A stretch of DNA of 38,233 nucleotides from an uncultured bacterium (GTDB taxonomy: Bacteria; Hydrogenedentota; Hydrogenedentia; Hydrogenedentales; JAEUWI01): contig CAXBPH010000032.1 of assembly GCA_963977445.1 (NCBI GenBank), positions 1 to 38,233 of the forward strand, written 5' to 3'. The notes beneath the pieces are model-generated. The model did not search any database and was not told the origin of the DNA. It saw only the letters and a program-made list of their open reading frames with translations. The position numbers and the translations under genes are program-made. Shown here one piece after another: positions 21,769 to 38,233 of this stretch (position 1 is its first letter; the number at the start of each line of letters is the position of its first letter).

Positions 21769-22139
21769 TTCCAGAATCGCTCCTGATTTGGGTTGTGTAC
21801 CCGATATAATTGCCGTAATCCTGCCATTCGACAGGAGAAAGCTACATAGCAGAAGATCTTGCATGATTATAAGTTACCAAAATGTAGGATTTTGGATGGG
21901 GTCTGCATCGCTGTTTTGTTTAACCAACGTCGATCGTCGCTTATGGTAGTTTATAAGTCCTTGCGGTGTAAAGTTTTGTGTCTGTTCTTGACATTTGTTG
22001 AGCTTGTTCTGTATCATACGCTGTGGAATGAACTGCAATTGTCACGCCAGTACTTGGGTCCTGAATGTCGACCAGCAGTCCTCCCCGCACTGATTCCCTT
22101 TCCAGGCACAACCGTATAGTAATAAAAGGTGGATTCATT

Positions 22140-25100
22140 TTGTCTAAGAGAGAAATATCCCGGAGCGGGTTGTACGAACCGTATTATGAGCATGATGCTT
22201 GTGGTATTGGGTTCATGTGCAACATCGACGGAAAGCGCTCCCACGAAGTAATTCAAAACGGCCTTCAGATTTTAGTCAATTTGACCCACCGAGGGGCCTG
22301 TGGCTGCGATCCGGAAACCGGTGATGGTTGTGGCATTATGCTTCACCTCCCCCATGAACTCTTCAAGGAAGACGTTCTGGAGCACGGTTTCGAGTTGCCT
22401 GAACCGGGCGACTACGGCGTGGGCATGATTTTCCTGCCAAAAGATCGGGAATCCCGTGAGTCGTGCATGCAGATCCTCAACAAGGCGATTTCCGAGGGAG
22501 ATCAGGAATTGCTCGGTTGGCGTGACGTGCCCCGGAATTCTGAGGCCATCGGCTGGTTGGCCCGTGAAAACGAACCCACCGTTCGCCAGGTTTTCATTCG
22601 TCGCTCGGAAGATCTTAGTATAGATGAGTTTGAGCGTAGGCTTTACGTCATTCGCAAATCGGCCACCCAGATGATCGGCAACTCGGTCATTTCGGGCAAG
22701 TCTGAATATTATGTGCCCAGCATGTCAGCCCGCACGATCGTGTACAAGGGCCTCATGCTCCCCGACGCAATGGACAAGTACTATCTTGACCTGGCGGATG
22801 AGCGGGCCATGAGCGGCATGGCCCTGGTGCACCAGCGGTACAGCACGAACACCTTGCCTGCCTGGTCGCTGGCCCAGCCCTTCCGCTTTCTGGCGCACAA
22901 CGGTGAAATCAATACCCTTCGCGGTAATCTGAACATGATGGACTCCCGTGAGCATCACTTTGAGAGCTCGCTTTTCGGTGAGGATCTGGCCAAGGTTCGC
23001 CCCATACTCAGTCCCGGTTCCAGTGATTCGGCCAACTTCGACAACGCCTTCGAGCTGTTGGTGCGTGGTGGTCGCGATGTGGACCATGCCATGGCGATGA
23101 TGGTTCCAGAGCCCTGGAGCGGTCATGAGAGCATGCCCGACGACAAAAAAGCATTCTACGAATTCCACGCCTGCAAGATGGAGCCGTGGGATGGTCCTGC
23201 TTCCATGGCCTTCTCCGATGGTGTGCGTATTGGCGCCGTGTTGGACCGGAATGGTCTTCGGCCATCGCGCTATTGGGTCACCAGTGACAACCAGGTCATC
23301 ATGGCTTCCGAAGCGGGCGTGCTGCACCACATCACACAAGATAAGGTGGTGAAAAAGGGGCGCCTCGAGCCTGGCCGTATGTTCCTCGTCGACATGGCCG
23401 AGGGTCGCATCGTTGATGACGCCGAACTCAAAGAGAAATTTGCCAACCGCAATCCTTACCGGGAGTGGCTGGACACGTATCGTATTGAGATGCCGACGGA
23501 TTTGGAGGAAGGGACTTCCACCCAGGAAGAAACGCCTCTTATGGAACGTCAGCAGGTCTTTGGCTATACCCGTGAGGATATGGAAATTATTCTCACGCCG
23601 ATGGCCGAAGATGGAAAAGAGCCAACGGGCTCCATGGGTAACGACGCCGCGCTGGCGGTGCTTTCGCCCCGTCCCCAGTTGCTCTTTAATTACTTTAAGC
23701 AGCTTTTTGCCCAAGTGACGAACCCGCCCATTGACCCGATTCGCGAAGATATCGTTATGTCTCTCGAGACCGATATCGGCCTGGAAGGGAACCTGTTGGG
23801 CGAGAGTCCCGAAGACTGTAAGCAGCTTCATCTCAAGTCTCCCATTCTCAGCAACGCGCAGTTGGACTTCATTAAGAAACTGGATCGCGACGGATTTCGT
23901 GCTGCGGTCGTTTCTACCCTTTTTGAAGCCGACAAGGGTCCGGCCGAAATGGACCGGGCGCTACACGCTATCTGCAAAGAAGCGGCACGTTGTCTTGAAG
24001 ACGGCGCGAATATGATCATCCTGTCGGATCGTGGTGTGAGTAAAAAACTTGCTCCGATTCCCAGTCTGATGGCCACGGGTGCGGTTCACCAGTATCTGGT
24101 GCACAAGCACAAGCGCAGTGAATGCGGGTTGATTATCGAGACCGGTGAAGCCCGCGAAGTTATGCATTTTGCCCTGCTTACGGGCTACGGCGCTGGCGCG
24201 GTGAACCCCTACCTGGCGTTGGAAACTCTGGACGACCTGAAGCATCGTGAAATGTTCGTCGAGAAGAAGCCGGGTATGGCCCACAAAAATTATATTAAGG
24301 CCCTCGAAAAGGGTCTGCTGAAGGTCATGTCGAAAATCGGCATTTCCACGCAGCAGAGTTATCGTTGTGCCCAGATTTTCGAGGCGGTTGGCCTGAATTC
24401 GGCCATCGTGGAGCGCTGCTTTTCCGGTACGGCATCACGTATCGAAGGTATTGGGCTCAAGGAAGTCGCCTTGGAAAGCCTGATGCGCCATGCCATGGCC
24501 TACCCCGAGAAACCTGCCCGCCGCGCTGAACTTGATGTGGGTGGTGCCTATCGCTGGCGTCGTCGTGGCGAATTCCACCAGTGGAATCCCGAGACCGTCG
24601 CCAAACTGCAGCATTCCACCAGTCAGAATAATCAGAAGACCTACGATGAGTTTGCGGAAGAAGTGAACAATCGTAACCGGACCCTTGCGGCCCTGCGTGG
24701 TCTGTTGGAATTCAAAGAAGGCACACCCATTCCGCTGGAACAGGTGGAGCCTGCCTCTGAGATCGTGAAGCGCTTTTGCACCGGTGCCATGTCCTATGGC
24801 TCGATTAGTGCGGAGTCCCACGAAAATCTCGCCATTGCTATGAATCGCATCGGTGGTCGCAGCAATACGGGTGAAGGTGGTGAAGATCCCCGTCGTTTTG
24901 AGCGGGATGAAAAAGGCGATCTCCGTCGAAGCGCCATTAAGCAGGTGGCTTCAGGACGCTTTGGCGTGACCAACGAATATCTCGTTAATTCTGATGAGCT
25001 TCAAATCAAAATGGCTCAAGGTGCCAAGCCCGGCGAAGGTGGTCAGCTTCCCGGCCATAAAGTATTCGAGAATATCGCAACGGTTCGTTATTCGACGCCG

Positions 25101-26675
25101 GGTGTCGAGCTCATTTCTCCGCCACCCCACCATGATATCTATTCCATTGAAGATTTGGCGCAGCTTATCCACGACCTGAAGAACGCCAACGTTCACGGCA
25201 ATGTTTCTGTGAAGCTGGTATCGGAAGTCGGGGTCGGCACCATCGCTGCCGGTGTTTCCAAAGGTAAGGCCGACTTGGTCCTTATCAGCGGACACGACGG
25301 CGGCACGGGTGCTTCGCCACTGACGTCTATCAAGTATGCTGGACTTCCCTGGGAGCTTGGCCTGACGGAGACCCACCAGGTACTGGTCGAAAACGACCTC
25401 CGTGATCGCATCCGCGTCCAGGTGGACGGCCAGATGAAAACCGGTCGCGACGTCGCCATCGGGGCGCTGTTGGGTGCCGACGAGTTTGGTTTTGCTACGG
25501 CTCCCCTTATCGTCTCCGGCTGTATCATGATGCGCAAGTGTCATTTGAATACCTGCCCGGTGGGTATTGCTACCCAGGACCCAGAGCTGCGGAAGAAATT
25601 CCAAGGCAAGCCCGAACACGTGGTGAACTATTTCTTCTTCGTGGCCGAAGAGTGCCGCAAGATAATGGCGGAGTTGGGATTTCGGACCATGACGGAAATG
25701 GTAGGCCGCGCTGACATGCTTAAGTTTTCGCCCTTGCCAGAGCATTGGAAAGCCAAGCACCTCGACTTCTCCCGGGTGCTTCATGTGGCGAAGGCGTGGG
25801 ATAATTCCACCCTCCATCACAGCAAGACTCAGGATCATGGTCTGGACGGTGCGTTGGACCATACGCTTATTGAACAGGCCAAGGCCGCATTGGAAAAGAA
25901 GGAAAAGGTTCGCATTAAGGTTGATATCAAAAACGTCAACCGAACGGTGGGCACGATGCTCTCCAGCGAACTGACCCGTCGCCACGGCCTGGGAATGTAT
26001 ACGGGCAGTCTTCCGGAAGATTTGGTCTGGATTGATTGCATGGGTATCGGTGGCAACAGTTTTGGTGCCTTTATCATCCAGGGTGTTACACTCAACATCG
26101 TTGGGGAAAGCAATGACTATGTGGGTAAAGGACTTTCTGGCGGTAAGATCATTGTATCGCCCTCGCCAGAATTTTCGGGTATCCCAGGTGAGAATATTAT
26201 TATCGGCAACGTGGCGCTCTACGGTGCGACCGCTGGTCAGGCCTATATCAACGGTGTGGCAGGTGAGCGTTTCGCCGTCCGTAACAGTGGTGCCTGGACC
26301 GTCGTTGAAGGGGTTGGCGGCCATGGTTGCGAATACATGACCGGGGGACGGGTTGCTGTCCTCGGTGAGACGGGACGTAACTTTGCCGCCGGTATGAGTG
26401 GTGGCATCGCCTACATTTATGATAAGAGCGGGTCCTTCTCCCTGAAGTGCAACATGGGTAGTGTGGACTTGAAGGGGCTGCATGCCGATAGCGTCGTCGA
26501 CCTGAAGACCATGCTCGAAAATCACGTTAAATACACCGACAGCGCCGTGGCGAAATCCATACTGGCAAACTGGACCGAAGAGCAGCAGCACTTCGTCCGC
26601 GTTATGCCCCGTGATTATGCCCGCGTTTTGAAGCAGCAAAAACAGGAACAGCCGGAGGTAACCCATGCTTCCTGA
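22140..26675 (+). CDS. gltB: Glutamate synthase large subunit
   Basis: EHDACGIG, HQRYSTNT, AHNGEINT, EPWDGPA, QGAKPGEGGQL, CHLNTCPVG and GXGXG repeats. Probable start is TTG at 22140 after AAAGGTGG. Confidence 0.98.
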   Translation: MSKREISRSGLYEPYYEHDACGIGFMCNIDGKRSHEVIQNGLQILVNLTHRGACGCDPETGDGCGIMLHLPHELFKEDVLEHGFELPEPGDYGVGMIFLPKDRESRESCMQILNKAISEGDQELLGWRDVPRNSEAIGWLARENEPTVRQVFIRRSEDLSIDEFERRLYVIRKSATQMIGNSVISGKSEYYVPSMSARTIVYKGLMLPDAMDKYYLDLADERAMSGMALVHQRYSTNTLPAWSLAQPFRFLAHNGEINTLRGNLNMMDSREHHFESSLFGEDLAKVRPILSPGSSDSANFDNAFELLVRGGRDVDHAMAMMVPEPWSGHESMPDDKKAFYEFHACKMEPWDGPASMAFSDGVRIGAVLDRNGLRPSRYWVTSDNQVIMASEAGVLHHITQDKVVKKGRLEPGRMFLVDMAEGRIVDDAELKEKFANRNPYREWLDTYRIEMPTDLEEGTSTQEETPLMERQQVFGYTREDMEIILTPMAEDGKEPTGSMGNDAALAVLSPRPQLLFNYFKQLFAQVTNPPIDPIREDIVMSLETDIGLEGNLLGESPEDCKQLHLKSPILSNAQLDFIKKLDRDGFRAAVVSTLFEADKGPAEMDRALHAICKEAARCLEDGANMIILSDRGVSKKLAPIPSLMATGAVHQYLVHKHKRSECGLIIETGEAREVMHFALLTGYGAGAVNPYLALETLDDLKHREMFVEKKPGMAHKNYIKALEKGLLKVMSKIGISTQQSYRCAQIFEAVGLNSAIVERCFSGTASRIEGIGLKEVALESLMRHAMAYPEKPARRAELDVGGAYRWRRRGEFHQWNPETVAKLQHSTSQNNQKTYDEFAEEVNNRNRTLAALRGLLEFKEGTPIPLEQVEPASEIVKRFCTGAMSYGSISAESHENLAIAMNRIGGRSNTGEGGEDPRRFERDEKGDLRRSAIKQVASGRFGVTNEYLVNSDELQIKMAQGAKPGEGGQLPGHKVFENIATVRYSTPGVELISPPPHHDIYSIEDLAQLIHDLKNANVHGNVSVKLVSEVGVGTIAAGVSKGKADLVLISGHDGGTGASPLTSIKYAGLPWELGLTETHQVLVENDLRDRIRVQVDGQMKTGRDVAIGALLGADEFGFATAPLIVSGCIMMRKCHLNTCPVGIATQDPELRKKFQGKPEHVVNYFFFVAEECRKIMAELGFRTMTEMVGRADMLKFSPLPEHWKAKHLDFSRVLHVAKAWDNSTLHHSKTQDHGLDGALDHTLIEQAKAALEKKEKVRIKVDIKNVNRTVGTMLSSELTRRHGLGMYTGSLPEDLVWIDCMGIGGNSFGAFIIQGVTLNIVGESNDYVGKGLSGGKIIVSPSPEFSGIPGENIIIGNVALYGATAGQAYINGVAGERFAVRNSGAWTVVEGVGGHGCEYMTGGRVAVLGETGRNFAAGMSGGIAYIYDKSGSFSLKCNMGSVDLKGLHADSVVDLKTMLENHVKYTDSAVAKSILANWTEEQQHFVRVMPRDYARVLKQQKQEQPEVTHAS

Positions 26676-28185
26676 TAAAGAAAAAGGGTTCATGCTCTTC
26701 GATCGCGAATTGCCGCAGGATGAAGCGCCGGATGAACGTCTGAAGCACTACAAAGAGTTTTCCACGTCGCTGCCGCCCGAGCGTATTACGGAGCAGGCGT
26801 ATCGTTGCATGAATTGCGGAATTCCTTTTTGTCATAGCGGTTGTCCGCTGGGCAATCAAATTCCCGATTTTAATGAACTGATGAAGGACGAGGATTGGGA
26901 AGAAGCGCTTCACGTGCTTCACTCAACCAATAATTTTCCAGAATTCACCGGTCGGGTGTGTCCTGCGCCATGCGAGACTGCCTGTGTGCTGGGCATCAAT
27001 GAGCCCGCCGTCACGATCGAAATCAACGAACGGGAAATCGCCGACCGCGGTTGGCGTGAGGGCTGGGTCACCCCACAAGTTCCAGAGCGGCGTACGGGCA
27101 AGACCGTTGCTGTAGTTGGCTCGGGGCCTGCGGGTCTTGCCGCTGCACAGCAGCTGAATCGTGCCGGGCACAATGTGGTCGTGTATGAGCGCTCCGATGA
27201 GCCCGGTGGATTGCTTATGTATGGCATTCCCAACTTCAAGCTCGATAAGCAGACCGTACTACGACGGGTTGGCCAGTTGAAAGAAGAAGGCGTTGAGTTT
27301 ATTTGCAATGCCGAAGTGGGTGTCAATGTACCCACCAGTAAGCTGGATCAATACGACGCTGTTCTCATTGCTATCGGTTCCACTAAAAGCCGTACCTTTG
27401 AGGGAATGAGTGTTCCCGGCTCTGACTTGAAGGGCATTTATCCGGCAATGGACTTTCTGCCCCAGCAGACGCGACGTGTCCTTGGTAAGACGGTAAAAGT
27501 AGAGGAAATACTGGCGACCGAGAAAAACGTTATCGTTATTGGCGGTGGAGATACCGGATCTGACTGCGTGGGAACAAGTTTGCGCCAGGGCTGTAAAAGC
27601 CTGGTCAACCTTGAGCTCATGCCGAAGCCCCCTGTGGATCGCGTGGGAAGCAATCCCTGGCCCCAGTGGTCCTTCGTGTTTCGCTCGTCTTCCAGCCACA
27701 AAGAAGGTGGTGAACGTCGGTACAGCGTGCTGACCAAGTCCTTTGAGGATGATGGTAAGGGCAATGTAAGCGCGTTGAATACCGTGCAGCTCGCGTGGGG
27801 CGAACCCGATGAAACGGGTCGCCGTCAGATGCAGGAAGTTCCCGGTACCGAAGAACGCATACCAGCAGAACTCGTGCTTCTGGCTATGGGATTCACCCAG
27901 CCGGAGACGGATACGTTCGTGAAGGAACTGGATCTGACGTTGGATCGCAATCGCTTTGGTCAGGGTATTCAAGCCAATACCCTGGACTTCATGACGACGA
28001 AAGACAAGTATTTTGTGGCCGGCGATGCCCGTCGTGGTCAGTCGCTGGTGGTCTGGGCGATACACGAAGGCCGTGAATCTGCACGGGCCATAGACCTGTA
28101 TCTCATGGGCGAGTCCACGTTGCAGGCCAGTGACAGCCAGGGATACGAGAGTCTCTCCCTTGAAGGTTCCCCCGTAGGCACCTGA
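26665..28185 (+). CDS. gltD: Glutamate synthase small subunit
   Basis: RCMNCGIPFC, GCPLGN, NNFPEFTGRVCPAPCE, GSGPAG, GGGDTGSDC and RRGQSLVVWAI. Confidence 0.97.
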   Translation: MLPDKEKGFMLFDRELPQDEAPDERLKHYKEFSTSLPPERITEQAYRCMNCGIPFCHSGCPLGNQIPDFNELMKDEDWEEALHVLHSTNNFPEFTGRVCPAPCETACVLGINEPAVTIEINEREIADRGWREGWVTPQVPERRTGKTVAVVGSGPAGLAAAQQLNRAGHNVVVYERSDEPGGLLMYGIPNFKLDKQTVLRRVGQLKEEGVEFICNAEVGVNVPTSKLDQYDAVLIAIGSTKSRTFEGMSVPGSDLKGIYPAMDFLPQQTRRVLGKTVKVEEILATEKNVIVIGGGDTGSDCVGTSLRQGCKSLVNLELMPKPPVDRVGSNPWPQWSFVFRSSSSHKEGGERRYSVLTKSFEDDGKGNVSALNTVQLAWGEPDETGRRQMQEVPGTEERIPAELVLLAMGFTQPETDTFVKELDLTLDRNRFGQGIQANTLDFMTTKDKYFVAGDARRGQSLVVWAIHEGRESARAIDLYLMGESTLQASDSQGYESLSLEGSPVGT

Positions 28186-28219
28186 GTCCACACCGCTTGA
28201 CCTATCAACGGCCTGGAAT

Positions 28220-28228
28220 TGGTATAAT
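28220..28228 (+). promoter_or_regulatory. Candidate extended -10 promoter upstream of the peptide array
   Basis: A perfect TGnTATAAT (TGGTATAAT). A TTGACC lies at 28197-28202 but with a 20 bp spacer. A second candidate, TGCTATGCT, is at ~28393-28401. Confidence 0.35.
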
Positions 28229-28436
28229 TTCCAATTTTGGGCCGTTTTTTTAGCCAACTGTCAGCAAAAGTGGAACTTTTTTCGTTTTACAGGGGATTAG
28301 ATGAAGAGGGTGTAACATCCTTGGCAGCCCGTCGGTACAGTAGGTATACCAAGGGCCGACGGCAGCACGGCTTCTACCATTAGAGGTCGGTGTGCTATGC
28401 TCTGGAGGTGCCCTTACTGTTGGAAGGAATTTACTG

Positions 28437-28586
28437 TTGAAACACCTGACATTGATTGCCCGAACACCCCTTCGCGCTGAGGAATTCACCACGGGACAGA
28501 AATTGAGCCTTGCCGCTGGAATTACGCAAGCTATTTCCGCCTTTTTCGTCACCAAAGAGCCCCCTGTGGTTACGACGACGCCCTGA
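28437..28586 (+). CDS. Putative precursor peptide P1 (49 aa)
   Basis: TTG start after AAGGA. Translation: MKHLTLIARTPLRA-EEFTTGQKLSLAAGITQAISAFFVTKEPPVVTTTP. Confidence 0.8.
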   Translation: MKHLTLIARTPLRAEEFTTGQKLSLAAGITQAISAFFVTKEPPVVTTTP

Positions 28587-28632
28587 TTCCTACGTTTTCA
28601 TCAACGAATACGGATACGAAGAGGAAGCTATT

Positions 28633-28830
28633 TTGAAACATTTACGCACCATATCCTGCACGCCCCTACAGGCGCAGCAAGCAAGTTTTAGTTTTGCAGC
28701 TATTTTTTCACTGGTTGCGGATATCCTCGCCGCTGTTGCCTTGGCCGTTACTGCCAAGGAAAGTTCCAATTTGACCGGCCTGACCGGTCTCCTGACGGGC
28801 GGCACGAGCGGCACGAGCACCCCTCCCTGA
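28633..28830 (+). CDS. Putative precursor peptide P2 (65 aa)
   Basis: TTG start after GAGGA. Translation: MKHLRTISCTPLQA-QQASFSFAAIFSLVADILAAVALAVTAKESSNLTGLTGLLTGGTSGTSTPP. Confidence 0.8.
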   Translation: MKHLRTISCTPLQAQQASFSFAAIFSLVADILAAVALAVTAKESSNLTGLTGLLTGGTSGTSTPP

Positions 28831-28935
28831 AGAGATTGCATGGTAGTGGTCGGCGAGAAGCTGATACTTGAAACGAGTACCTAACCAGAGGCTTCCTGCA
28901 TCGTATTGTAGTCGCAGGGCCAGGAGGGAATATTG

Positions 28936-29103
28936 ATGCGACATTTGACGTGCTTATCCAAGCGTCCGGAACGGGCACAAACGGGGGTTTGCGCCACTAT
29001 AGGAAGTGACTACCAGGCGCTGCTATGCTTCATCATTGAAGCGCTCAATACGGTTTTCCCCAGCTTCATCCAGTCAAAGACGCCAACGCAGACCGCGATC
29101 TGA
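28936..29103 (+). CDS. Putative precursor peptide P3 (55 aa; not in the ORF track)
   Basis: ATG after a strong AGGAGG SD. Translation: MRHLTCLSKRPERA-QTGVCATIGSDYQALLCFIIEALNTVFPSFIQSKTPTQTAI. Confidence 0.85.
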   Translation: MRHLTCLSKRPERAQTGVCATIGSDYQALLCFIIEALNTVFPSFIQSKTPTQTAI

Positions 29104-29109
29104 TTGCGT

Positions 29110-29316
29110 ATGGGGAGCGGTGACCAGCGTGGGGCGGTCCACGTGAGAATGATAAGTCGAATTCCGGAAAGGGCGCAAAGCCTCGCGCCGGAAGTGAAGC
29201 TTACGTTCTTGCGAGAGCTTCTCGTCGCCTCGGGAGATACCTCGGCACTTCGTGGCTTCCTCACCGTGACCATCCCGCTCTTCGTCAACAAGGATCCAAG
29301 CAACCCCGCATCATAA
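29110..29316 (+). CDS. Putative precursor peptide P4 (start uncertain)
   Basis: Translation: (MGSGDQRGA)VHVRMISRIPERA-QSLAPEVKLTFLRELLVASGDTSALRGFLTVTIPLFVNKDPSNPAS. It carries the same leader motif. Confidence 0.75.
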   Translation: MGSGDQRGAVHVRMISRIPERAQSLAPEVKLTFLRELLVASGDTSALRGFLTVTIPLFVNKDPSNPAS

Positions 29317-29399
29317 TATATGGGGTTGCGTTTCAAACTTGTAGCGGCTGCCAAAATATGCTCTAATAGGCGGAACCGAGAACAAACCGGAGTGAGTAC

Positions 29400-29525
29400 A
29401 TGAAACACATCAGGCAGATTTCGACCCCTAAGGCCGATGCGTTTGTGGATTTCTACAACGCCCTCTACCGTGCGTGGATAGACTTTCGCAATGGCAAAAA
29501 GGACGAGGCCCAATCGGGGTTCTAG
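29400..29525 (+). CDS. Putative precursor peptide P5 (41 aa; not in the ORF track)
   Basis: ATG after GGAG. Translation: MKHIRQISTPKA-DAFVDFYNALYRAWIDFRNGKKDEAQSGF. Confidence 0.8.
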   Translation: MKHIRQISTPKADAFVDFYNALYRAWIDFRNGKKDEAQSGF

Positions 29526-29550
29526 TTCTTCAAAAACGATACATGTAGTA

Positions 29551-29591
29551 CCGGGGCCTGACGCCCAAAGCGCGGGTTCCGGTTCCTTTGT
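29551..29591 (+). terminator. Imperfect GC-rich hairpin with weak U-tail between the peptide array and the modifier genes
   Basis: CCGGGGCCTG-A-CGC / CCAAA loop / GCG-CGGGTTCCGG, followed by TTCCTTTGT. Confidence 0.4.
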
Positions 29592-29638
29592 TCAGGGGTG
29601 CCGATCTGCGGTTCGCCCGATGGAGACTATGCGCGACC

Positions 29639-30184
29639 ATGATTCGTGGGGAACATAGCTTTATCCGGGGTACGGAACAGGACGATGTGGAGGCCCTGTT
29701 CGGCCTTTATGCGCCCGGCGTACTTCGGGCCGGGCTACTCGATGCGCGGCGGGAACCCTTGCTGGTCACGCGGGACGATCTTCGCGATCTCCTGACCCGA
29801 AAGGAAATCGCGGACGGTAGCTTTTACACCGTTGAGTCGAAGACGGGGGCCATCGTGGGATTTTGTAGCATTCGCGGATTGAACACCGATGCCCGATTTG
29901 CTGAGTATGGTATTCAGTTCACCGATACGGACTGCTATGGGGCCGATCTGGCGAGGGAAGTGCATGATTTTCTCCTGGATCGGGCGTTTAAGCGTCTGGG
30001 GCTGCGCAAGGTTATTGCCCACGCTCTCACCGAAGAAACGGCGATGGTAGAATTTCTCCGGGGGAAGGGATTCATGTCTGCGGGCGTCCAGCGGGAAATT
30101 CTGTTTTCCCAGGGCACGTGGCATCACCTGGAAACGCTTGTCTTGAATAATCCGTCCTTCAACGCTTCCCAGGCCGTGAGTTAG
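29639..30184 (+). CDS. RimJ/RimL-type GNAT N-acyltransferase
   Basis: MIRGEHSFIR..EQDD start, AFKRLGLRKV and GF..AGVQRE...GTWH C-terminus. Confidence 0.8.
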   Translation: MIRGEHSFIRGTEQDDVEALFGLYAPGVLRAGLLDARREPLLVTRDDLRDLLTRKEIADGSFYTVESKTGAIVGFCSIRGLNTDARFAEYGIQFTDTDCYGADLAREVHDFLLDRAFKRLGLRKVIAHALTEETAMVEFLRGKGFMSAGVQREILFSQGTWHHLETLVLNNPSFNASQAVS

Positions 30185-30186
30185 CT

Positions 30187-30816
30187 ATGCCTTTCACAAC
30201 CACAACCTATATTCGCCGCGCTGAACGGGACGACCTCGACACCGTTGTTGCGTGGATGGAAAGTGCCGACTTTCAGCATTTTCTCTACGGCGATCCTGCC
30301 CGTTCTCCCAAACTGGTTCGGGAAAAGATCGTCGCCATGCTGGGGCGCGCCGTAGGCCATACCATGCCCGGCGGTATCTATCTGTTGATTGACTCGCCCG
30401 CCTTGGGACCGGTGGGGCTATTGTCCCTGCAGAATATCAGCTGGCGGAATCGTTCGTGCAGTATTGATCTGTACATTGGCAAGACGGAGCATCGCAGTGG
30501 GATTATAGCGGCCGGCGCGGTGTACCAAACGTTGGAGTATTGCTTTCACGAGCTGAACCTCCACCGGGTCAGTGCGTTCATCTATAGTTTTAATACGGCT
30601 TCCTGGCGCATATTGGAAAAGACCGGCGCGAAACGGGAGCTTATCCTGCAGGATCACGTCGCCCGGGATGGCAACCTATTTGACCTCTATGGCTACGGGC
30701 TGCTTCGCAGTGAATTCGACGCGTTTCGCGCCGAGTACCACCATACCGCTTCCGGCTTCTCCCTCGAGGCGATGATCGAAACCTTGGGGCGTGCCGGCAC
30801 GGAGCCCGACGGTTGA
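30187..30816 (+). CDS. RimJ/RimL-type GNAT N-acyltransferase
   Basis: IRRAERDDL, ISWRNRSCSIDLYIG, YCFHELNLHRV, FNTASWRILEKTG and YGLLRSEF. Confidence 0.88.
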   Translation: MPFTTTTYIRRAERDDLDTVVAWMESADFQHFLYGDPARSPKLVREKIVAMLGRAVGHTMPGGIYLLIDSPALGPVGLLSLQNISWRNRSCSIDLYIGKTEHRSGIIAAGAVYQTLEYCFHELNLHRVSAFIYSFNTASWRILEKTGAKRELILQDHVARDGNLFDLYGYGLLRSEFDAFRAEYHHTASGFSLEAMIETLGRAGTEPDG

Positions 30817-31706
30817 ATATTGTATTGCTCGCGACGCTGGTTGCCTATGCGATTCATGCGGTATGGGTGCACTCGCTCCAAGGCCCCGAAGCCGACGAGA
30901 CCGATACCCACCTGCACCGGGGAATGCCGTTCCCGATAATGCCACTGGGGCTTTTTCTGTTGTGCCAGGCCCTGGGCTCACCCGGCATTGCCGCATTCAT
31001 AAAATCACCGGGTACCTTGATCTTCGGCAGTGCGTTTTTCCTCTGGATGCTCTATCGCCAAGTGAAAAAGAATCGCACCGAGGCAGATGGAGGCGGCGAT
31101 ATTCGTTCTCAATGCTCCTATGCCCTCGGCGGCGTCCTCCAATCGGGCCTGCTCGTCGTCTCGTGTTACCTGGCCTATGAGGCTGGCGCGATTGGCAGGA
31201 GCCTTTTCAGTCCCGGTTGGGGTATACTAGGGGTTGTTGCGGGTCACTTTATCTTCGGCGTATCCCTGTGTTTCAGCCATCGTTCACTCGATTCACTGAA
31301 AAATATCGGGCGTTACGTCTTAGGCGTGCGTTCCGTGGCCCGATTTGCATTTGAGGCTCCGCGCCAGGTTTTCGCGTGCCTTGACGTGAGTCTGATGGAA
31401 GAGATTATTTATCGTGTGGCGGCGCAGAGTGTACTTGTCGTCTTGGTAGGGAATCCCACGATAGCGATCGTGCTGGTTGCCATCATCTTTTCCATCGTGC
31501 ATCGCCATTTCTTCTACAACCCTATCGTGGATTCGATAGAGTTTTTGGCCTTTTCCTTGCTTTTGGGCGGGCTATATTACTGGTCGGAGAGCTTGATACT
31601 TGTGGTGATGATACACACCATACGAAATTTTGAGATTGTTTACTTTGATCATGCGGAAGGTCCGCTGGCTGTATCAACGGCCAGGGCACTCCGTTTAAGG
31701 GCCTGA
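30813..31706 (+). CDS. CPBP (CAAX protease type II/Abi) intramembrane glutamic metalloprotease
   Basis: Multiple TM segments, and all three motifs: EEIIYR (EExxxR), FSIVH (FxxxH) and HTIRN (HxxxN). Confidence 0.88.
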   Translation: MNIVLLATLVAYAIHAVWVHSLQGPEADETDTHLHRGMPFPIMPLGLFLLCQALGSPGIAAFIKSPGTLIFGSAFFLWMLYRQVKKNRTEADGGGDIRSQCSYALGGVLQSGLLVVSCYLAYEAGAIGRSLFSPGWGILGVVAGHFIFGVSLCFSHRSLDSLKNIGRYVLGVRSVARFAFEAPRQVFACLDVSLMEEIIYRVAAQSVLVVLVGNPTIAIVLVAIIFSIVHRHFFYNPIVDSIEFLAFSLLLGGLYYWSESLILVVMIHTIRNFEIVYFDHAEGPLAVSTARALRLRA

Positions 31707-31712
31707 ACAGGA

Positions 31713-32738
31713 ATGTCGGATACTTCAGATAAATTCATTGAACTGGCTAATTTGAAAAAGTCGTTCGTGCTTCGCAATTTCTTCGTGAAAGACGAAGATA
31801 CGGGCAAACGTCGCCTCTATCGAAAAACCTTCGTGCACGCAGTGCAAGGGGTGGATTTCAGCATTGCCCGGGGAGAGATATTTGGCTTGCTCGGGCCCAA
31901 CGGTGCGGGCAAGACCACGACCGTCAAAATGCTTAGTGGGCTGGTGAAGCCTGACGGCGGGCATGTCACGGTGGATGGCCTGGAAGTTGAGCGCTATCGC
32001 CAGAAAGTGTTGCGCAAAGTCGGGGTCGTTCTCGAAGGTACCCGTACCAGCATCTGGCCATTGACGCCCCTGGAAAATCTGGCCTACTACGGCAATCTAA
32101 AAAATGTAAAAGGGGCCGTACTTAAAGAGCGGTCAAACCGACTACTCGACTTTATCGGCCTCAAAGATAAGAAAAACGTGGAAGTACGTCATCTTTCACG
32201 TGGCCAGAAACAGAAATTGGCCATATGTATCGCCATGATTGCCGATCCACAGGTGCTTCTGCTTGACGAACCCACCACGGGGTTGGATGTGCAGAGTGCC
32301 CGCGCGATTAAAGATAAAATTATCGAAATGACTCGGGAGCACGGGAAGAGTGTTCTCGTCACGACCCACGACATGCATGTGGCGCAAGAGCTCTGCGACC
32401 GGATCGGAATTATTGACAAAGGGAAGCTCGTGGCCTGTAAGCCGACACAAGAGCTCCTCGGTAACTTTTCTGAGCAGGTCTACGTCTTCCAACTGGATCG
32501 CGAACCCGAGCTGGCGGCCCTGCAGGCCCTCCCCGGCGTTCTTTCGGTAGAGCGGGAACTTACGGTGGACGGTCCGGCGGCCGTGGTCAGTCTCCAACCA
32601 GATAGTGAAGTTCGCTCCCGCGCGCTTTACGCGGTGGTGGAGACACTCGCGCGTGGCTCCTTTGAACTACGGGGCATCTCGCAGCGACAGCAGAATCTGG
32701 AGAGTATTTTCCTCCAATTGACCACCAGCAGTATTTAA
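31713..32738 (+). CDS. ABC exporter ATP-binding subunit
   Basis: Walker A GPNGAGKT, signature LSRGQ, Walker B LLLDEPT and H-loop TTHD. Confidence 0.95.
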   Translation: MSDTSDKFIELANLKKSFVLRNFFVKDEDTGKRRLYRKTFVHAVQGVDFSIARGEIFGLLGPNGAGKTTTVKMLSGLVKPDGGHVTVDGLEVERYRQKVLRKVGVVLEGTRTSIWPLTPLENLAYYGNLKNVKGAVLKERSNRLLDFIGLKDKKNVEVRHLSRGQKQKLAICIAMIADPQVLLLDEPTTGLDVQSARAIKDKIIEMTREHGKSVLVTTHDMHVAQELCDRIGIIDKGKLVACKPTQELLGNFSEQVYVFQLDREPELAALQALPGVLSVERELTVDGPAAVVSLQPDSEVRSRALYAVVETLARGSFELRGISQRQQNLESIFLQLTTSSI

Positions 32739-32782
32739 CGAAATCGTTTCGATTACGGAATGAAACAGGAGTTCGGAGAAAC

Positions 32783-33631
32783 ATGAGTTTTCTTCTCGTT
32801 ATGAAAGCCGAAATTGTGCAGGCCCTTATCATAATGCGCCGATATTGGTTTCGTACCATCATCGGAATGGTTATGGGTTATGGCATGCTGCTCGTCCTCA
32901 TTGCCGGCTTTATGGTAAGCCGCAAAGAAGTGACCGACATGGCCGTGGGGCGTTTTGGCGATGCAGAATCCGCTACCAACTTTGTGCTTGGATTTATTAT
33001 CGGCATGTTCGCCTTTGGGATTGTGGGTATGTTCACCCAGGGCATTCAGGGAATGGCAAGCACCGGCGTGTTGGAGCAGTTGTGCCTCAGCCCCCATGGC
33101 CTGATTACGAACTTTCTTGCCCGCAGCACGGTCGCAGGTATTACGACCTGTTTGTCTTCAAGTTTCATGGTTTGGCTGGTCACAGAGACGGTGGGGGGGC
33201 AGCTCTATTTCGATGGGCTGGCTTTGGCGTCCGTGCTGGTGCTCACCTTCATAAATCTGCTCGGATTTGGCTTTATGATGGGGGGGCTGGTCCTGGTCTT
33301 CAAGCAGGTGGGGCAGGTCGCCATCCTGATACGAATGGGGCTCTTTGCCCTGGCTATCTTCGCCAAAGAGGAACTGCTCCACAAAGGCTGGGCCATGGCA
33401 ACCTTTGTACATGCCCTTCCTATTGCGGATGCCGCCATCCTATTGAAATGGATATTAATCTCCAATCAGGGGCGTGAAGGAGACAACATGGAAAATTATG
33501 TCTCTGCCTTTCAGCACCCCTCCATGTTCTTTCTCATACTCAGTTGTGTGGTCTGGACCGGTTTGGGCATGACCTGCTTCAAACTGATGGAAAACTGGAG
33601 TCGCGCCAAAGGAACCCTGGGAACCTACTGA
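32783..33631 (+). CDS. ABC-2 type exporter permease
   Basis: About 6 TM helices, a GVLEQLCLSP motif and a C-terminal KGTLGTY; adjacent to the ATPase. Confidence 0.85.
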   Translation: MSFLLVMKAEIVQALIIMRRYWFRTIIGMVMGYGMLLVLIAGFMVSRKEVTDMAVGRFGDAESATNFVLGFIIGMFAFGIVGMFTQGIQGMASTGVLEQLCLSPHGLITNFLARSTVAGITTCLSSSFMVWLVTETVGGQLYFDGLALASVLVLTFINLLGFGFMMGGLVLVFKQVGQVAILIRMGLFALAIFAKEELLHKGWAMATFVHALPIADAAILLKWILISNQGREGDNMENYVSAFQHPSMFFLILSCVVWTGLGMTCFKLMENWSRAKGTLGTY

Positions 33632-35490
33632 TGGCACGAACCGCACTGCATCGATTCGAACGGGACGGCAGACGATTCGTGTTGGACACAGACACCTGTT
33701 TCTGTTTTGAGTGCGACGCCATATCCTGGGATGTGTTGGGATACTATCCCGACACGCCGGTGAATCAAATCGTCCATACCCTCGGTACGACGCACCCACC
33801 GGCGGAGCTGGAAGAAGTCATCGGCGAATTGGAGTGGTTGCGGGCAACAAAGTCCATCTTGCCGTTGAAAAAACAGCAGGATCAGATCAAAGATTTTGAG
33901 TTGGTGCCCGGACTGCGTCAATTGGATCTATCCCTTGACGGCAGAAATCGTCTCACGGAACGCTGTGATGGGGCACTCATGCTGCTTTTGGGGCGTTCGG
34001 GCACGCAGAAGAATCTGAAAATAAGCCTGTTCTTCAGTGATTTTGAAGGATTGGGCGAATGGTTGCCCCAGTGGGGGAAACGTGCCTTTGATTGCGCGAA
34101 GATGGCGGGGAAAGTTTTGACCCTTGGTCTGGTGCATACCGCCCCGCGCCGCCACCGCGCCGATAAAGCACTCGGAGACCACCCGGTAAACGTTGCCTGT
34201 ACCTTTACCACGGCAGACACCCTGGCGCCGACCTTGGGCGCCTGGTCGAAGGCCCGTTCCGGCGCGTTGGGACGTTTAACACGTAGCATCGGCACTGGGG
34301 AAGGAGAAGAGCTCTCCGTAACACTCGTACCCCACAACGGCACGTTTGACGCGGCGGTACGCTACCTGGTCAAAGAGGGCTTCAAGCGGGTCGATATCGA
34401 CATCATCGCTGCCTATGGTCACGTCGCCGCCGGGGAGAGCGATTCTATCGTGTCCGGACTGGAGTCAACGGCGGTCTTTTATGCCCAGGAACTCCTTAAG
34501 CGAAATTACTTCCGTCTGGAGCCCATCGCCGGACTCTTCCATCAGATATACGAGGGTAAGGCCCGCTCTCGGGCGGACGAAGCAGGCACTTGGTTACTCG
34601 CCATGGATGAACGTGGCGATATTTATCCTTCACGGCACTTTTTCGACGTCGCCGAGTATCGCCTGGGCAATATATGTGACGGTGATTTTGATGAGGACCG
34701 CCGCTCAACCTTTGACGACATGGGTATCATGACGACGTCGCCCTGTGGCACCTGTTGGGCACGTAATCTGTGCGGTGGCGGATACAGCGCGGTCCATCGC
34801 GTTCTTGGAGGTTCCATTCGTCGTCCCGATGGCACGTGGTGTGATTCCCAGCGAGATTGGTATGCTGCCGCGATCGCGGCGTTTAATATGCTTTCGGCAG
34901 AGGGGGTGGATTTTGCCCGCCTCTATCAGAACCTGCGCCCCGGAAAGGGGATGTCGCTCTGGGGAATGGCCCGGGCGGCCCTCACGATGAACGTGGGGCT
35001 ACGTCCCATTGAAGAATCGGATGCGGCGCTGCTGACCCGCTGGGAAAACTGGAGCGAGGCCGCCTATTTTCTGGGCAACGAATATGGCGTATTCCTGGCA
35101 ACCCGCTATGACCGGGAGATGGATTCCCTTCATCCCAGGGGCATTGAGCAGGAATTCATGATCATCTCCCGCCGCGGGGCTCCCCTGGGGCTTCTGAAAA
35201 TCAGGCCGGATGGTGTTGCTGGATTGGCTCGGGTCTGGATTTACTTCCAAGACCAGGCGCTCTATCAAGACAAGGCCACACGGAGTAGTTTTTCCCGAAT
35301 TATTAGAGAGGCTTCTAAGCAGGGCGCTTTCCGCCGATTCGTCGCGGCTTCCGGGCCCGGTGATAACGGACTGAGCGAGTTTCTGGAGGCCATCGGCTTC
35401 GCTCCCCTGGGTGTCGAGCGCGAGGCGTTGTTTCTCCACGATGCCTACCACGATATCGCGTTATTTCAGATGGTTATGAGTCCATCTTAA
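33631..35490 (+). CDS. RRE + degenerate radical-SAM core + SPASM + C-terminal GNAT fusion protein
   Basis: ATG overlaps the permease TGA. N-terminus is CteB-like RRE (HRFERDGRRFVLD...EEVIGELEWL). SPASM region reads GDIYPS..LGNI..CGTCWARNLCGGG..WC. C-terminus is a GNAT (LRPIEESD...GF..LGVERE). No CxxxCxxC motif. Confidence 0.8.
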   Translation: MARTALHRFERDGRRFVLDTDTCFCFECDAISWDVLGYYPDTPVNQIVHTLGTTHPPAELEEVIGELEWLRATKSILPLKKQQDQIKDFELVPGLRQLDLSLDGRNRLTERCDGALMLLLGRSGTQKNLKISLFFSDFEGLGEWLPQWGKRAFDCAKMAGKVLTLGLVHTAPRRHRADKALGDHPVNVACTFTTADTLAPTLGAWSKARSGALGRLTRSIGTGEGEELSVTLVPHNGTFDAAVRYLVKEGFKRVDIDIIAAYGHVAAGESDSIVSGLESTAVFYAQELLKRNYFRLEPIAGLFHQIYEGKARSRADEAGTWLLAMDERGDIYPSRHFFDVAEYRLGNICDGDFDEDRRSTFDDMGIMTTSPCGTCWARNLCGGGYSAVHRVLGGSIRRPDGTWCDSQRDWYAAAIAAFNMLSAEGVDFARLYQNLRPGKGMSLWGMARAALTMNVGLRPIEESDAALLTRWENWSEAAYFLGNEYGVFLATRYDREMDSLHPRGIEQEFMIISRRGAPLGLLKIRPDGVAGLARVWIYFQDQALYQDKATRSSFSRIIREASKQGAFRRFVAASGPGDNGLSEFLEAIGFAPLGVEREALFLHDAYHDIALFQMVMSPS

Positions 35491-35599
35491 TCGGCCCTTG
35501 CACCGCACCGAATCTTGGAGTAGACTGGTTATATATGGGAACTGTCGTCTCTACGCCGACGTACAGGAAATGTCAGATTCAAACTTCGAGGCCTATCCG

Positions 35600-35989
35600 A
35601 TGATTAAAGTTGTGATTGCTGATGACGACCCACACGTTGCCCGTTTTGAAGGACGCGTAATGGAATCGCTCGGATATTCAGCTATCCTCTGCCGCGATGG
35701 ATTGCGTGCGCTTTCTGTGTTGGAAGATAATCCCGATGTAAGTTTACTTATTACCGACGTCTCCATGCCCAATATGGGAGGCCGTGAGTTGGTTAGTGAG
35801 CTCCGCCGACATGGGCAATTTCAACGCCTGCCTATCATTTTGACCTCGGGGGTCGTTCGGGTTTCGGAAATCGCCGACTTACTCGATATCGGCGTGACCT
35901 GTTTTCTGGGAAAACCAGTGGAACTGGGTGACTTGAAAAGTTATGCCCGCAGTCTGGTAAGCCAGAAGACGGGCTCTCTGGTCGGCTGA
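35600..35989 (+). CDS. Single-domain response regulator (receiver)
   Basis: ADDD, LITDVSMPNMGG and LGKP; GAGG SD before ATG 35600. Confidence 0.9.
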   Translation: MIKVVIADDDPHVARFEGRVMESLGYSAILCRDGLRALSVLEDNPDVSLLITDVSMPNMGGRELVSELRRHGQFQRLPIILTSGVVRVSEIADLLDIGVTCFLGKPVELGDLKSYARSLVSQKTGSLVG

Positions 35990-36010
35990 CCGCGAGCAAC
36001 GGAGACCTGT

Positions 36011-36397
36011 ATGATACGTGTAGTCATTGCAGAAGATGAACCGACGGTAGCCAAAACGATAGCCCGCTGTATGCTCTCTCTGGGGTATCACCCCGTAATA
36101 TGCAGCGATGGTCAACGTGCCCTGAATGTCATCGAAGACAATCCAGACACGAAGCTACTCATCACGGACGTTTCCATGCCGAATTTCGATGGTCGTGATC
36201 TGGTCCAGCGATTACAAGCGAACGAAAAATTCAGCAAAATACCCACCATTGTCATCTCCGGTTTGGTGAGCGTGGCCGAGATTGCCCACCTGGTCGACAA
36301 TGGCGTGACCTACTTTCTGGGCAAGCCTGTCAATCTCGAAGACCTGAAGGAACACGCACGAAGTCTGGTTGAGCATGACCGTCATCCTGTAGAGTGA
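36011..36397 (+). CDS. Single-domain response regulator (receiver), paralog of the upstream gene
   Basis: AEDE, LITDVSMPNFDG and LGKP; GGAGA SD. Confidence 0.9.
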   Translation: MIRVVIAEDEPTVAKTIARCMLSLGYHPVICSDGQRALNVIEDNPDTKLLITDVSMPNFDGRDLVQRLQANEKFSKIPTIVISGLVSVAEIAHLVDNGVTYFLGKPVNLEDLKEHARSLVEHDRHPVE

Positions 36398-36403
36398 CCC
36401 GTC

Positions 36404-37879
36404 TCAGTCACACCAGATCGAATAGAATTGGCCGTTGCGCACGCCGATTCGTAATTGAATGGGGGTCGAGGGTGGGGGGAGTGGGGTATCCCATGTCAGG
36501 GGCATATCGAGACTATCTAATTCTACCGGCACCGCCGTCGCAATTTTCTGGCCCGTGCTATCCAGCGCTTCGACGGTAATTTCTCCCCAGTTCGCGCGAC
36601 CATTGATGTGTATGGTTGAGCCAGCACGGGTGAAGGGGACCGTCGTGAGGATTCCTCCGGTGTAGTCGCCTTCCATGGCCACAAAGCGATCGCGTTTTAT
36701 CGTTCCATAGCCGATGGCACCTTGAATGGGGCCACTGTCCGTGCCTTCATAGGGATCGTGTCGATAGCGTCGATCGCTATAGTAGAAACGCAACTCGTCT
36801 CCTTCTTCAATGGGCGGATTATTCGCAACAGCGACGTTGAATCGATCCCAATCCCCCACCTCACCATTGGGGATGAATGGTGTGCGGTCGCCTACGCGGG
36901 TAAAGGCGTTGCCGTCGCGGCTCGTGGCAAGCTGTATATTCAAAAAAGAGTCAAGGGGACGGTTTTGGAAATGTTGTACCAGACCAATGTATTGATTGCC
37001 GTATTTGAATACCCCCATGCCGTAGATTTCTGAAGCGATGGCATCATCCAGGTCGGCAGACATCACGATGGGTGCACTGTCGGGGGCGCTATGTTCCCAA
37101 TGGATAAAATCATTGGACGAGGTGTGGGCAACCACCCGGCCCCAAAAATGCTTCTGGTACCACGGGTCGCTTTTCCACGCAGCATCCAGCGCCTCGGGTT
37201 GACGTTTGCTTCGGCCATAGAGATGATAACGCCCCTGTTCCGGGTCATAGGTCCAGTGGGTTGAGCCGTCTACGATGGCATCGGTTGTAAAGGTCTCGAT
37301 GTTGGTCCAGTGTATTCCATCGGGGCTCCCTGCAACCCCGAGACCCCGCCGTTGACCTCGGTGAAAGAGATCCATGTGGGGGCCCTCATAGGGGCGCTCG
37401 ATGCTCAGGTACCCCATCTTATAACGGCGTGTTGGATCCGGGTCCTTGTCATCACGAAAAACGCCGAAGAGTTCATAGAACCAGGGAAAGGGACCCTCGC
37501 CGGGGCTGTCGATGGACGCCCGTACCAGAATGTTGGAGGGTTCGCCCTCCCATGGAACGAGATCCATCAGGGGCTTGGTCCACGTGATGCCATCCTGGCT
37601 TTCCGCGTAACATACGCCTCGGGGCATGTAGTACCACATGCGATATAGGCCGTTTTCCTTCACTACGGAGCCATAGAGCAGGGGGCGTTGCTGTTCCCAG
37701 GCTTTGTCACCCGTGAGCACCGGGTTTTCGACCGCTTTTTCTACCGGCATGATTCGGCGGGTCAGGTTCTCCGAAGTAGCGATAAAATGGTCATCCAGGA
37801 AGAGCTCATGGTTATTTCCGAGGCTAAGGGCCTCGGGGGCGGTCAGCAGAAGGGCAAGTGAAAGGATAAATGGGGTCAT
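36404..37879 (-). CDS. Secreted beta-propeller glycoside hydrolase-like protein (same family as 9187-10761)
   Basis: ELFLDD, YRMWY, YAESQDGITWTKP, SPDGIHW, SRDG and KRDRFV motifs. Probable start is ATG 37879 with a GGAG SD and signal peptide. Confidence 0.65.
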   Translation of the reverse strand: MTPFILSLALLLTAPEALSLGNNHELFLDDHFIATSENLTRRIMPVEKAVENPVLTGDKAWEQQRPLLYGSVVKENGLYRMWYYMPRGVCYAESQDGITWTKPLMDLVPWEGEPSNILVRASIDSPGEGPFPWFYELFGVFRDDKDPDPTRRYKMGYLSIERPYEGPHMDLFHRGQRRGLGVAGSPDGIHWTNIETFTTDAIVDGSTHWTYDPEQGRYHLYGRSKRQPEALDAAWKSDPWYQKHFWGRVVAHTSSNDFIHWEHSAPDSAPIVMSADLDDAIASEIYGMGVFKYGNQYIGLVQHFQNRPLDSFLNIQLATSRDGNAFTRVGDRTPFIPNGEVGDWDRFNVAVANNPPIEEGDELRFYYSDRRYRHDPYEGTDSGPIQGAIGYGTIKRDRFVAMEGDYTGGILTTVPFTRAGSTIHINGRANWGEITVEALDSTGQKIATAVPVELDSLDMPLTWDTPLPPPSTPIQLRIGVRNGQFYSIWCD

Positions 37880-38233
37880 GTTCGATCTCCAGAGAAGTGT
37901 TTGAATGATGTCATGGTAAAAGATCGGCGAAGCCTGTGCAAGAGCATGGAGCAGGGCAATCGCACTAAAATACCCCATCCGTTGCGCCCCATCTGATTTG
38001 ATGAAAGCCGTAGATTGAGGGGTGCCACTTGTCAATCAACATGGATGTGAAGTCGATATCGGGTATTTTAATGTTTCATGGGCGATTAGTGGGGATGACT
38101 TATTCGATATTTCAAGTGCCGTAGGTACAAGGATGACTTGATGGGTTCTTGCGAATCATGTCGTCACGCAATTTTTTTCAGATAAAACGACAAACCATGG
38201 ACGTGCCGCGCGATCTGGTACTCCAGTTCGTGC

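Follow-up and report, generated by a model that had tools for sequence, protein, structure and literature searches.

The locus considered here raises the question of why each of five small peptides, encoded one after another in the DNA of an uncultured bacterium and followed by genes for GNAT-fold proteins, should end its hydrophobic or amphipathic stretch with a lysine. The DNA analysed, hereafter the window, is contig CAXBPH010000032.1 of assembly GCA_963977445.1 (Hydrogenedentota; 38,233 nucleotides), an entire contig of a 7.1-Mb metagenome-assembled genome, and the peptide genes lie on its plus strand at 28437–29525. The original prediction picked out five such junctions (FFVT-K-EPP, AVTA-K-ESS, FIQS-K-TPT, LFVN-K-DPS and FRNG-KK-DEA), all of which were found again on that strand and in that interval at the ends of hydrophobic or amphipathic stretches, and proposed the lysine as an acylation site. 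Taken together, the present data suggest that the peptides are of precursor type and belong to a cassette kept across the Hydrogenedentota, and that their boundary lysine, at the junction of helix and polar tail, is a candidate site of N-epsilon-acylation; this hypothesis is a tentative one, somewhat short of an even chance, and is the best single reading of the locus. The observation of a conserved lysine is itself solid, and the mechanism proposed for it is directly testable.

In the window the lysine in question is K40 of peptide P1 (28437–28586, TTG start; codon 28554–28556) and K42 of P2 (28633–28830, TTG start; codon 28756–28758), both of family AB, K48 of P3 (28936–29103, family C, with two conserved cysteines; codon 29077–29079), the residue encoded at 29290–29292 in P4 (29143–29316, family D, start uncertain) and K33 of P5 (29400–29525, family E, the most conserved; codon 29496–29498), where it is followed by K34 (29499–29501). 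Family hidden Markov models (HMMs) run over the window and 115 loci recovered 392 peptides, namely 144 of family AB, 115 of E, 64 of D, 52 of C and 17 of a variant family V, with 22 further open reading frames (ORFs) that gave only weak leader-type matches left out. The main set consists of the first four families, that is, 375 peptides and 367 distinct sequences from 110 loci of Hydrogenedentota, and 372 of the 375 carry the boundary lysine (AB 141/144, C 52/52, D 64/64, E 115/115), which was therefore kept in the larger precursor alignment that the original prediction had named as its check. The rule for picking it, the lysine after residue 24 with the most hydrophobic residues among the preceding ten, finds it in 111 of the 115 type-E peptides, the other four carrying a KK pair that falls one short of the hydrophobicity threshold. 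At fixed columns of the family alignments lysine stands in 131/144 AB, 59/64 D and 110/115 E peptides, and nearly all of the misses are alignment shifts with the lysine one or a few positions away. The three true exceptions carry arginine, are orthologues of one genus (Ca. Hydrogenedens), and each have another lysine further down the tail. When 80 of the 139 distinct AB peptides, a sample that excludes the three arginine variants, were aligned with MAFFT, the lysine was the sole invariant column at a mean column identity of 31%; the corresponding alignment for type E, built from 44 of an earlier set of 47 peptides, has M1, H3, A12 and K33 as its invariant columns. A plain MAFFT alignment of the five window peptides was of no use in this respect, as it does not bring the lysines into one column; the register emerges only inside a family or with the lysine itself used as the anchor. 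Among cores so anchored, no other residue is common to the families at any offset from −14 to +7, as had been claimed when the lysine was first described as the only residue shared by all of them.

This conservation is far above chance, because lysine accounts for only 96 of the 9400 residues between leader and boundary (arginine for 247), and lysine is avoided elsewhere in the core. The boundary position needs lysine and not mere positive charge: its ratio of lysine to arginine is 372 to 3, whereas position 2 of the leader has lysine in 283 and arginine in 51 peptides, and position 5 has arginine in 155 and lysine in 94. Both lysine codons are in use (AAG 254, AAA 121), which indicates that selection acts on the amino acid. 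Two other sources of constancy were considered and rejected. Lys-Glu codons (AAGGAA or AAGGAG) might serve as the Shine-Dalgarno sequence of the next gene, but in the window some 80 nt separate the lysine codon from the start that follows, the tails vary from 1 to 38 residues, and AAA is used in 121 of 375 cases. A ruler measured from the leader likewise fails, as the distance between start and lysine ranges, by family, from about 33 to 55 residues.

Counted back from the lysine, the four families share one pattern, hydrophobic at −4, −7/−8, −11 and −14 and polar at −5, −9 and −13. For 330 of 372 peptides (AB 127/141, C 50/52, D 47/64, E 106/115) the 18 residues before the lysine have a helical hydrophobic moment directed to within 60 degrees of it, compared with 126 of 370 random anchors, and the picking rule biases the level of hydrophobicity before the lysine, not its phase. 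In all four families the lysine thus sits on the hydrophobic side of an amphipathic helix, and its helical register is fixed. AlphaFold2 models P5 as one long helix over residues 9–38 (mean predicted local distance difference test score, pLDDT, 76.5) with K33 inside its last turns, and P2 as one long helix over residues 21–54 (mean pLDDT 76.2), in which pLDDT falls after residue 40, near K42. The earlier description of the lysine as capping the helix is consequently only approximate: in the models it occupies the last confident turns, while the helices run on to residues 38 and 54. T, S, E, G and P abound in the tails that follow (family medians 6–14 residues), and none of the tail positions is conserved; the residue directly after the lysine depends on the family, being E in AB, T or K in C, D or N in D, and K then N in E. 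At the other end, the peptides begin with a 15-residue MKH motif that ends in A-Q/D/E and matches the pattern M-K/R-H-hydrophobic-x-x-hydrophobic-S/T...P-x-x-A-Q, with histidine at position 3 in 328 and lysine or arginine at position 2 in 334 of the 375 peptides. Conserved cysteines are confined, among the main families, to family C. No match was found for the five window peptides among NCBIfam models at E ≤ 1, for P5 in the ESM Atlas at 0.9 or above, or for the AB family in a profile search of the PDB at E ≤ 10.

The five small ORFs are real genes: the leader HMM matches 162 forward-strand ORFs (E < 0.01) upstream of GNAT genes in 55 related loci and the window, against zero ORFs on the opposite strand of this DNA. 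For P4 the start may be the GTG at 29143 or an upstream ATG at 29110 or TTG at 29104; its orthologues begin M/V-K/R-R-L, the window has no start codon at the aligned place (29104–29143), and translation from 29143 makes the handle three residues shorter, and from 29110 longer. In the window's own genome the peptides are confined to this one cluster, in which no repeats were found. The gene order GNAT1, GNAT2, CPBP protease, two ABC genes and a scaffold gene described below is kept in 55 related loci, the exceptions being a few with parts missing at contig ends or on other contigs. Of 61 relatives 56 have GNAT2, as do 49 of 49 high-quality genomes; the type-E peptide occurs in 109 of 135 Hydrogenedentota genomes, with counts of 77 of 86 for those of high quality and 52 of 66 by genus. 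One family, f3, almost lacks it (1/14), and AB-family peptides were not found in four of the five f3 genomes that lack GNAT2, one of these four being 97% complete. The peptides and the GNAT operon occur, and are lost, together. The records of the 38 loci located by the type-E pattern name Candidatus Hydrogenedentota, some of them bearing only the label "uncultured bacterium" or "uncultured Nitrospirales". One genus and a further genome have the block from GNAT2 through CPBP and ABC genes to the scaffold without GNAT1 or peptides upstream (L037, L057, L059 and L083 versus L154 and L171; genomes G048, G053, G037 and G044); in these the type-E peptide is on another contig, so that the cassette can be split. 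Family V is a fifth family with the same MKH handle and often with cysteine pairs, which replaces type E next to GNAT1 in some lineages (L051, L073, L074, L080, L081 and others). In a marine-sediment metatranscriptome run, contigs from a relative are 90–95% identical to 29315–29497 (type-E gene) and 29530–29692 (start of GNAT1), a weak hint of expression rather than proof of transcription. No paper on this cassette was found in the limited library of literature searched.

The genes that follow the peptides lie on the same strand, with gaps of −4 to 44 nt from GNAT1 through the scaffold gene. GNAT1 (29588–30184, its true start perhaps the ATG at 29639) and GNAT2 (30187–30816, beginning 2 nt after GNAT1) both score above the cutoff of 25.4 bits for Pfam Acetyltransf_3 (PF13302), at 38.8 and 61.2 bits, and both are far below every NCBIfam equivalog cutoff. 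In GNAT2, 35 residues are invariant across 54 orthologues. Among solved structures, both proteins are closest to AAC(6') and diamine and spermidine acetyltransferases, enzymes that acetylate primary amines borne by alkyl chains. A complex prediction of GNAT1, GNAT2 and a type-E peptide returned a score of 0.00, which is no answer and speaks neither for nor against binding. In two genomes an extra GNAT2-like paralogue (39–42% identity) lies between GNAT1 and GNAT2 (G035:C15:9952-10488 and G029:C4:91660-92181).

Directly downstream, a CPBP or Rce1-like intramembrane protease (30813–31706, overlapping GNAT2 by 4 nt) scores 42.5 bits against a PF02517 cutoff of 22.4 and carries the motifs EExxxR, FxxxH and HxxxN, which as EExxxR, FxxxH and HxxxN/D are intact in 55 of 55 orthologues. 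An ABC exporter follows (31713–33631), made up of a DrrA-like ATPase (31713–32738) and an ABC-2 permease (32783–33631). The next gene (33631–35490, plus strand) encodes a 619-residue SPASM homologue, here called the scaffold, whose C-terminal SPASM half matches NCBIfam SPASM-maturase models at E 5e-18 to 5e-16 and whose C-terminal tail is GNAT-like (Pfam Acetyltransf_4 at E 0.021; RimL-like in the NCBIfam search). It is syntenic in relatives and has kept its SPASM cysteines; CxxxCxxC is absent from its 648-residue translation and Pfam Radical_SAM gives no match at E ≤ 10. Without CxxxCxxC, radical chemistry is excluded, and acyl transfer and proteolysis are left as the encoded chemistries. The claim that the GNATs are the only modifying activity encoded is thus nearly right, the exception being the intact protease. 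Residues 23–29 of the scaffold (window 33697–33717) read C-F-C-F-E-C-D, of which F24, C25, F26, E27, C28 and D29 are invariant in 22 orthologues, and it is conceivable that these residues and the near-invariant His3 of the peptides share a metal site.

It is possible to construct from these data a model in which the GNATs are active on the lysine, and we infer an order of steps as follows. Each precursor consists of a handle at the N-terminus that is short and basic, an amphipathic helix particular to its family, one boundary lysine and a variable polar tail. The scaffold would hold the peptide by its handle, and the lysine epsilon-amine would accept an acyl group through GNAT1 together with GNAT2, perhaps working as the two halves of a tandem GNAT, and/or through the GNAT tail of the scaffold. 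Acylation would take away the sole charge of the hydrophobic face and lengthen it by a lipid or acetyl cap, after which the CPBP protease and the ABC exporter may trim and export the product. Acylation of the lysine is preferred as the best single reading because of the strict need for lysine, its place on the hydrophobic face, the joint occurrence and loss of peptides and GNATs, and the action of the GNATs' relatives on terminal alkyl amines; both the preference for lysine over arginine and the position on the hydrophobic face would fit acylation. A more elaborate form of the model, a lysine-based bacterial counterpart of CAAX processing in which a scaffold-held split tandem GNAT fatty-acylates the lysine, CPBP recognises the residue once lipidated and clips the polar tail, and the ABC-2 system exports four to six lipidated helical peptides as a phylum-wide core component of the envelope or a surface-active one, is quite unlikely to hold in all its parts.

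Several observations weigh against acylation of the lysine. The textbook coenzyme A (CoA) loop, [Q/R]xxGx[G/A], is not conserved in any of the GNAT domains, being found anywhere in the protein in only 4 of 36 GNAT1, 4 of 54 GNAT2 and 6 of 22 scaffold tails, so that some or all of these domains may be non-catalytic or use another donor; the check compares strings only, and active GNATs may depart from this motif. Conservation is much lower in GNAT1 than in GNAT2 (mean column identity 44% and 64%), and the named members of the RimJ/RimL-type Pfam family acetylate alpha-amines. The context of the lysine is AKE, SKT, NKD or KKNE according to family, which together with its varying distance from the leader leaves no single local motif and no ruler. 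It stands precisely where the conserved core gives way to the variable tail, a place at which a protease site would be expected, and an intact CPBP protease is encoded in the same operon. In family V only 13 of 17 peptides have a lysine of the boundary type, and as the peptides are related by descent, the counts overstate their independence.

Some of these observations lend themselves to other explanations. The lysine may be a processing mark, with CPBP or another peptidase reading the helix end together with the lysine and removing the polar tail while the GNATs act elsewhere or not at all. Rce1-type enzymes do cut C-terminal tails beside a marked residue, and a protease with intact motifs, a gene that overlaps GNAT2, a lysine placed just where conservation stops, and tails of 1–38 T/S/E/G/P-rich residues with nothing in common would all agree with such a function. 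However, we know of no CPBP substrate with a lysine determinant, tails of one or two residues would be odd substrates, and a protease site alone leaves the fixed register of the lysine on the hydrophobic face unexplained; this explanation is considered unlikely. Much the same, if slightly more favourable, verdict applies to the proposal that the GNATs acylate an alpha-amine, either that of Met1 in M-K-H or that of a new N-terminus after removal of the handle, while the lysine has a physical role as an interfacial snorkelling anchor or as part of a charge ring in a bundle of four to six helices. Membership of the RimJ/RimL-type Pfam family and the conserved N-terminus speak for the first half of this proposal, although GNAT2 reaches only 12.8 bits against a cutoff of 190 for the RimJ NCBIfam equivalog and the scaffold tail only 16.2 against 184 for RimL. 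The heptad-like pattern common to all families would suit the helix-helix packing that its second half supposes, but an anchoring or electrostatic role usually tolerates arginine, which here occupies the boundary in 3 of 375 peptides while the leader exchanges lysine and arginine freely.

It may also be that no covalent modification takes place, the peptides being small amphipathic proteins, the GNAT domains and the dead radical SAM protein serving as binding scaffolds or export chaperones, and the lysine being a contact residue. One pseudoenzyme, the radical SAM homologue, is already present, the textbook CoA loop is lacking in all three GNAT domains, and a phylum-wide cassette with strongly conserved cores is unlike typical fast-evolving antimicrobial peptides. 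Against this, the invariant residues of GNAT2 exceed what a passive scaffold usually needs, and a chaperone assembled from three acyltransferase folds of a single operon would be oddly designed, so that this possibility appears decidedly improbable. Least probable by far is the participation of the lysine in some other chemistry, such as a cross-link or the addition of an amino acid by a GNAT-fold transferase. Specificity for lysine would suit any chemistry with an amine nucleophile, and the scaffold has kept its SPASM cysteines, yet it has no radical SAM site, searches of the operon turned up no ATP-grasp, transglutaminase or Fem-type family, and no second residue is conserved across the families as a partner for a cross-link.

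With acylation of the lysine retained as the preferred reading, the cassette can be placed beside known systems. Selidamides (kamptornamide, phaeornamide and the nostolysamides) are described in two reports as peptides made on the ribosome and modified after translation, in which side chains of lysine or ornithine are fatty-acylated by GNATs; their precursors have NHLP/Nif11 leaders that end in Gly-Gly, and their clusters include lanthionine synthetases and, in some, an arginase (PMC8784127; PMC13060382). One such enzyme, NpuN, is described in the second report as a tandem GNAT, with a putative peptide-binding domain lacking a clear P-loop, that acylates Lys1 only and uses acyl-CoAs (PMC13060382). 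As in the selidamides, genes for a ribosomal peptide, for a GNAT-fold enzyme and for an exporter stand side by side in the present cassette, and one specific lysine is the acceptor, there proven and here proposed. The two GNAT genes lie 2 nt apart, which recalls the tandem arrangement of NpuN, and because of this spacing it has been entertained, as an idea and not a result, that GNAT1 and GNAT2 could be a split version of an NpuN-like enzyme. The differences are, however, considerable: the leader is a 15-residue MKH handle and not an NHLP/Nif11 leader with Gly-Gly, no lanthionine synthetase is found among the operon genes, the acceptor would be at the C-terminal end of a helix and not at core position 1, the GNATs are single-domain PF13302 proteins of the RimJ/L type (set against the selidamide GNATs by description, not by sequence), and the cassette is a core feature of a phylum and not a sporadic cluster. 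The cassette works most like the selidamides and yet is not a member of that family.

Resemblances to other systems are more partial. GNAT1 and GNAT2 share their Pfam family and nearest solved relatives with RimJ, RimL and SpeG-type enzymes, from which they are set apart by equivalog scores far below cutoff, by the unconserved glycines of the CoA loop and by a context of peptide genes, protease and exporter. The 619-residue protein recalls the maturases of SCIFF peptides and ranthipeptides (ScfB/CteB, QhpD, PapB) in the match of its C-terminal SPASM half and in its place beside small peptide genes, but it lacks CxxxCxxC, has a GNAT-like tail, and accompanies peptides with conserved cysteines in family C only; the SCIFF peptide model TIGR03973 has no match in the window's own genome, and none of 14 control genomes reached its cutoff either. 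An Rce1-like protease with all its motifs beside peptides with a marked residue and a dispensable-looking tail is reminiscent of CAAX processing by Rce1 and of the CPBP proteases SkfC and MroQ; the skf cluster likewise brings together a CPBP protease, an ABC exporter and a radical SAM enzyme. In CAAX processing, however, the lipidated residue stands exactly three residues from the C-terminus, whereas the marked residue here is a lysine and not a prenyl-cysteine, the tails span 1–38 residues and not three, and no prenyltransferase or methyltransferase is encoded in the operon.

If the lysine is acylated, the locus would represent a ribosomal lipopeptide pathway whose machinery, a dead radical SAM scaffold, three GNAT domains and an Rce1-like protease, is unlike that of the selidamides, and which a whole uncultured phylum would keep as a core trait, in contrast to an antibiotic cluster of sporadic occurrence. 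The fixed place of the lysine on the hydrophobic face suggests a possible way in which the same enzymes could recognise four unrelated core families. At the level of single residues, the result turns a cassette without assigned function into a directly testable hypothesis, with one lysine per peptide to examine and natural arginine variants as controls. One orphan MKH-type peptide outside the operon has its lysine two residues from its end (L185:1501-2555, genome G040) and is followed directly by a Sir2/CobB-like ORF, a single case; this ORF may be a lysine deacylase, judging by a GAGISxxSGIPDFR motif that we take to mark such enzymes.

Further observations concern the flanks of the operon. 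Beyond the scaffold gene (35498–38035) lie two single-domain response regulators and a minus-strand ORF of 543 residues without a Pfam match; tblastn with the two regulators gave a match in 1 of 55 loci, which extend only about 1–1.5 kb past the scaffold gene. On the upstream side, a strong terminator-like hairpin on the plus strand (28207–28246; a 16-pair stem followed by a T run) stands after gltD, and behind it the peptide genes begin a new transcription unit. The gltD gene, for the small subunit of glutamate synthase, in the region 22065–28185 of the window, is directly upstream of the peptide array, as it is in 18 of 55 related loci.

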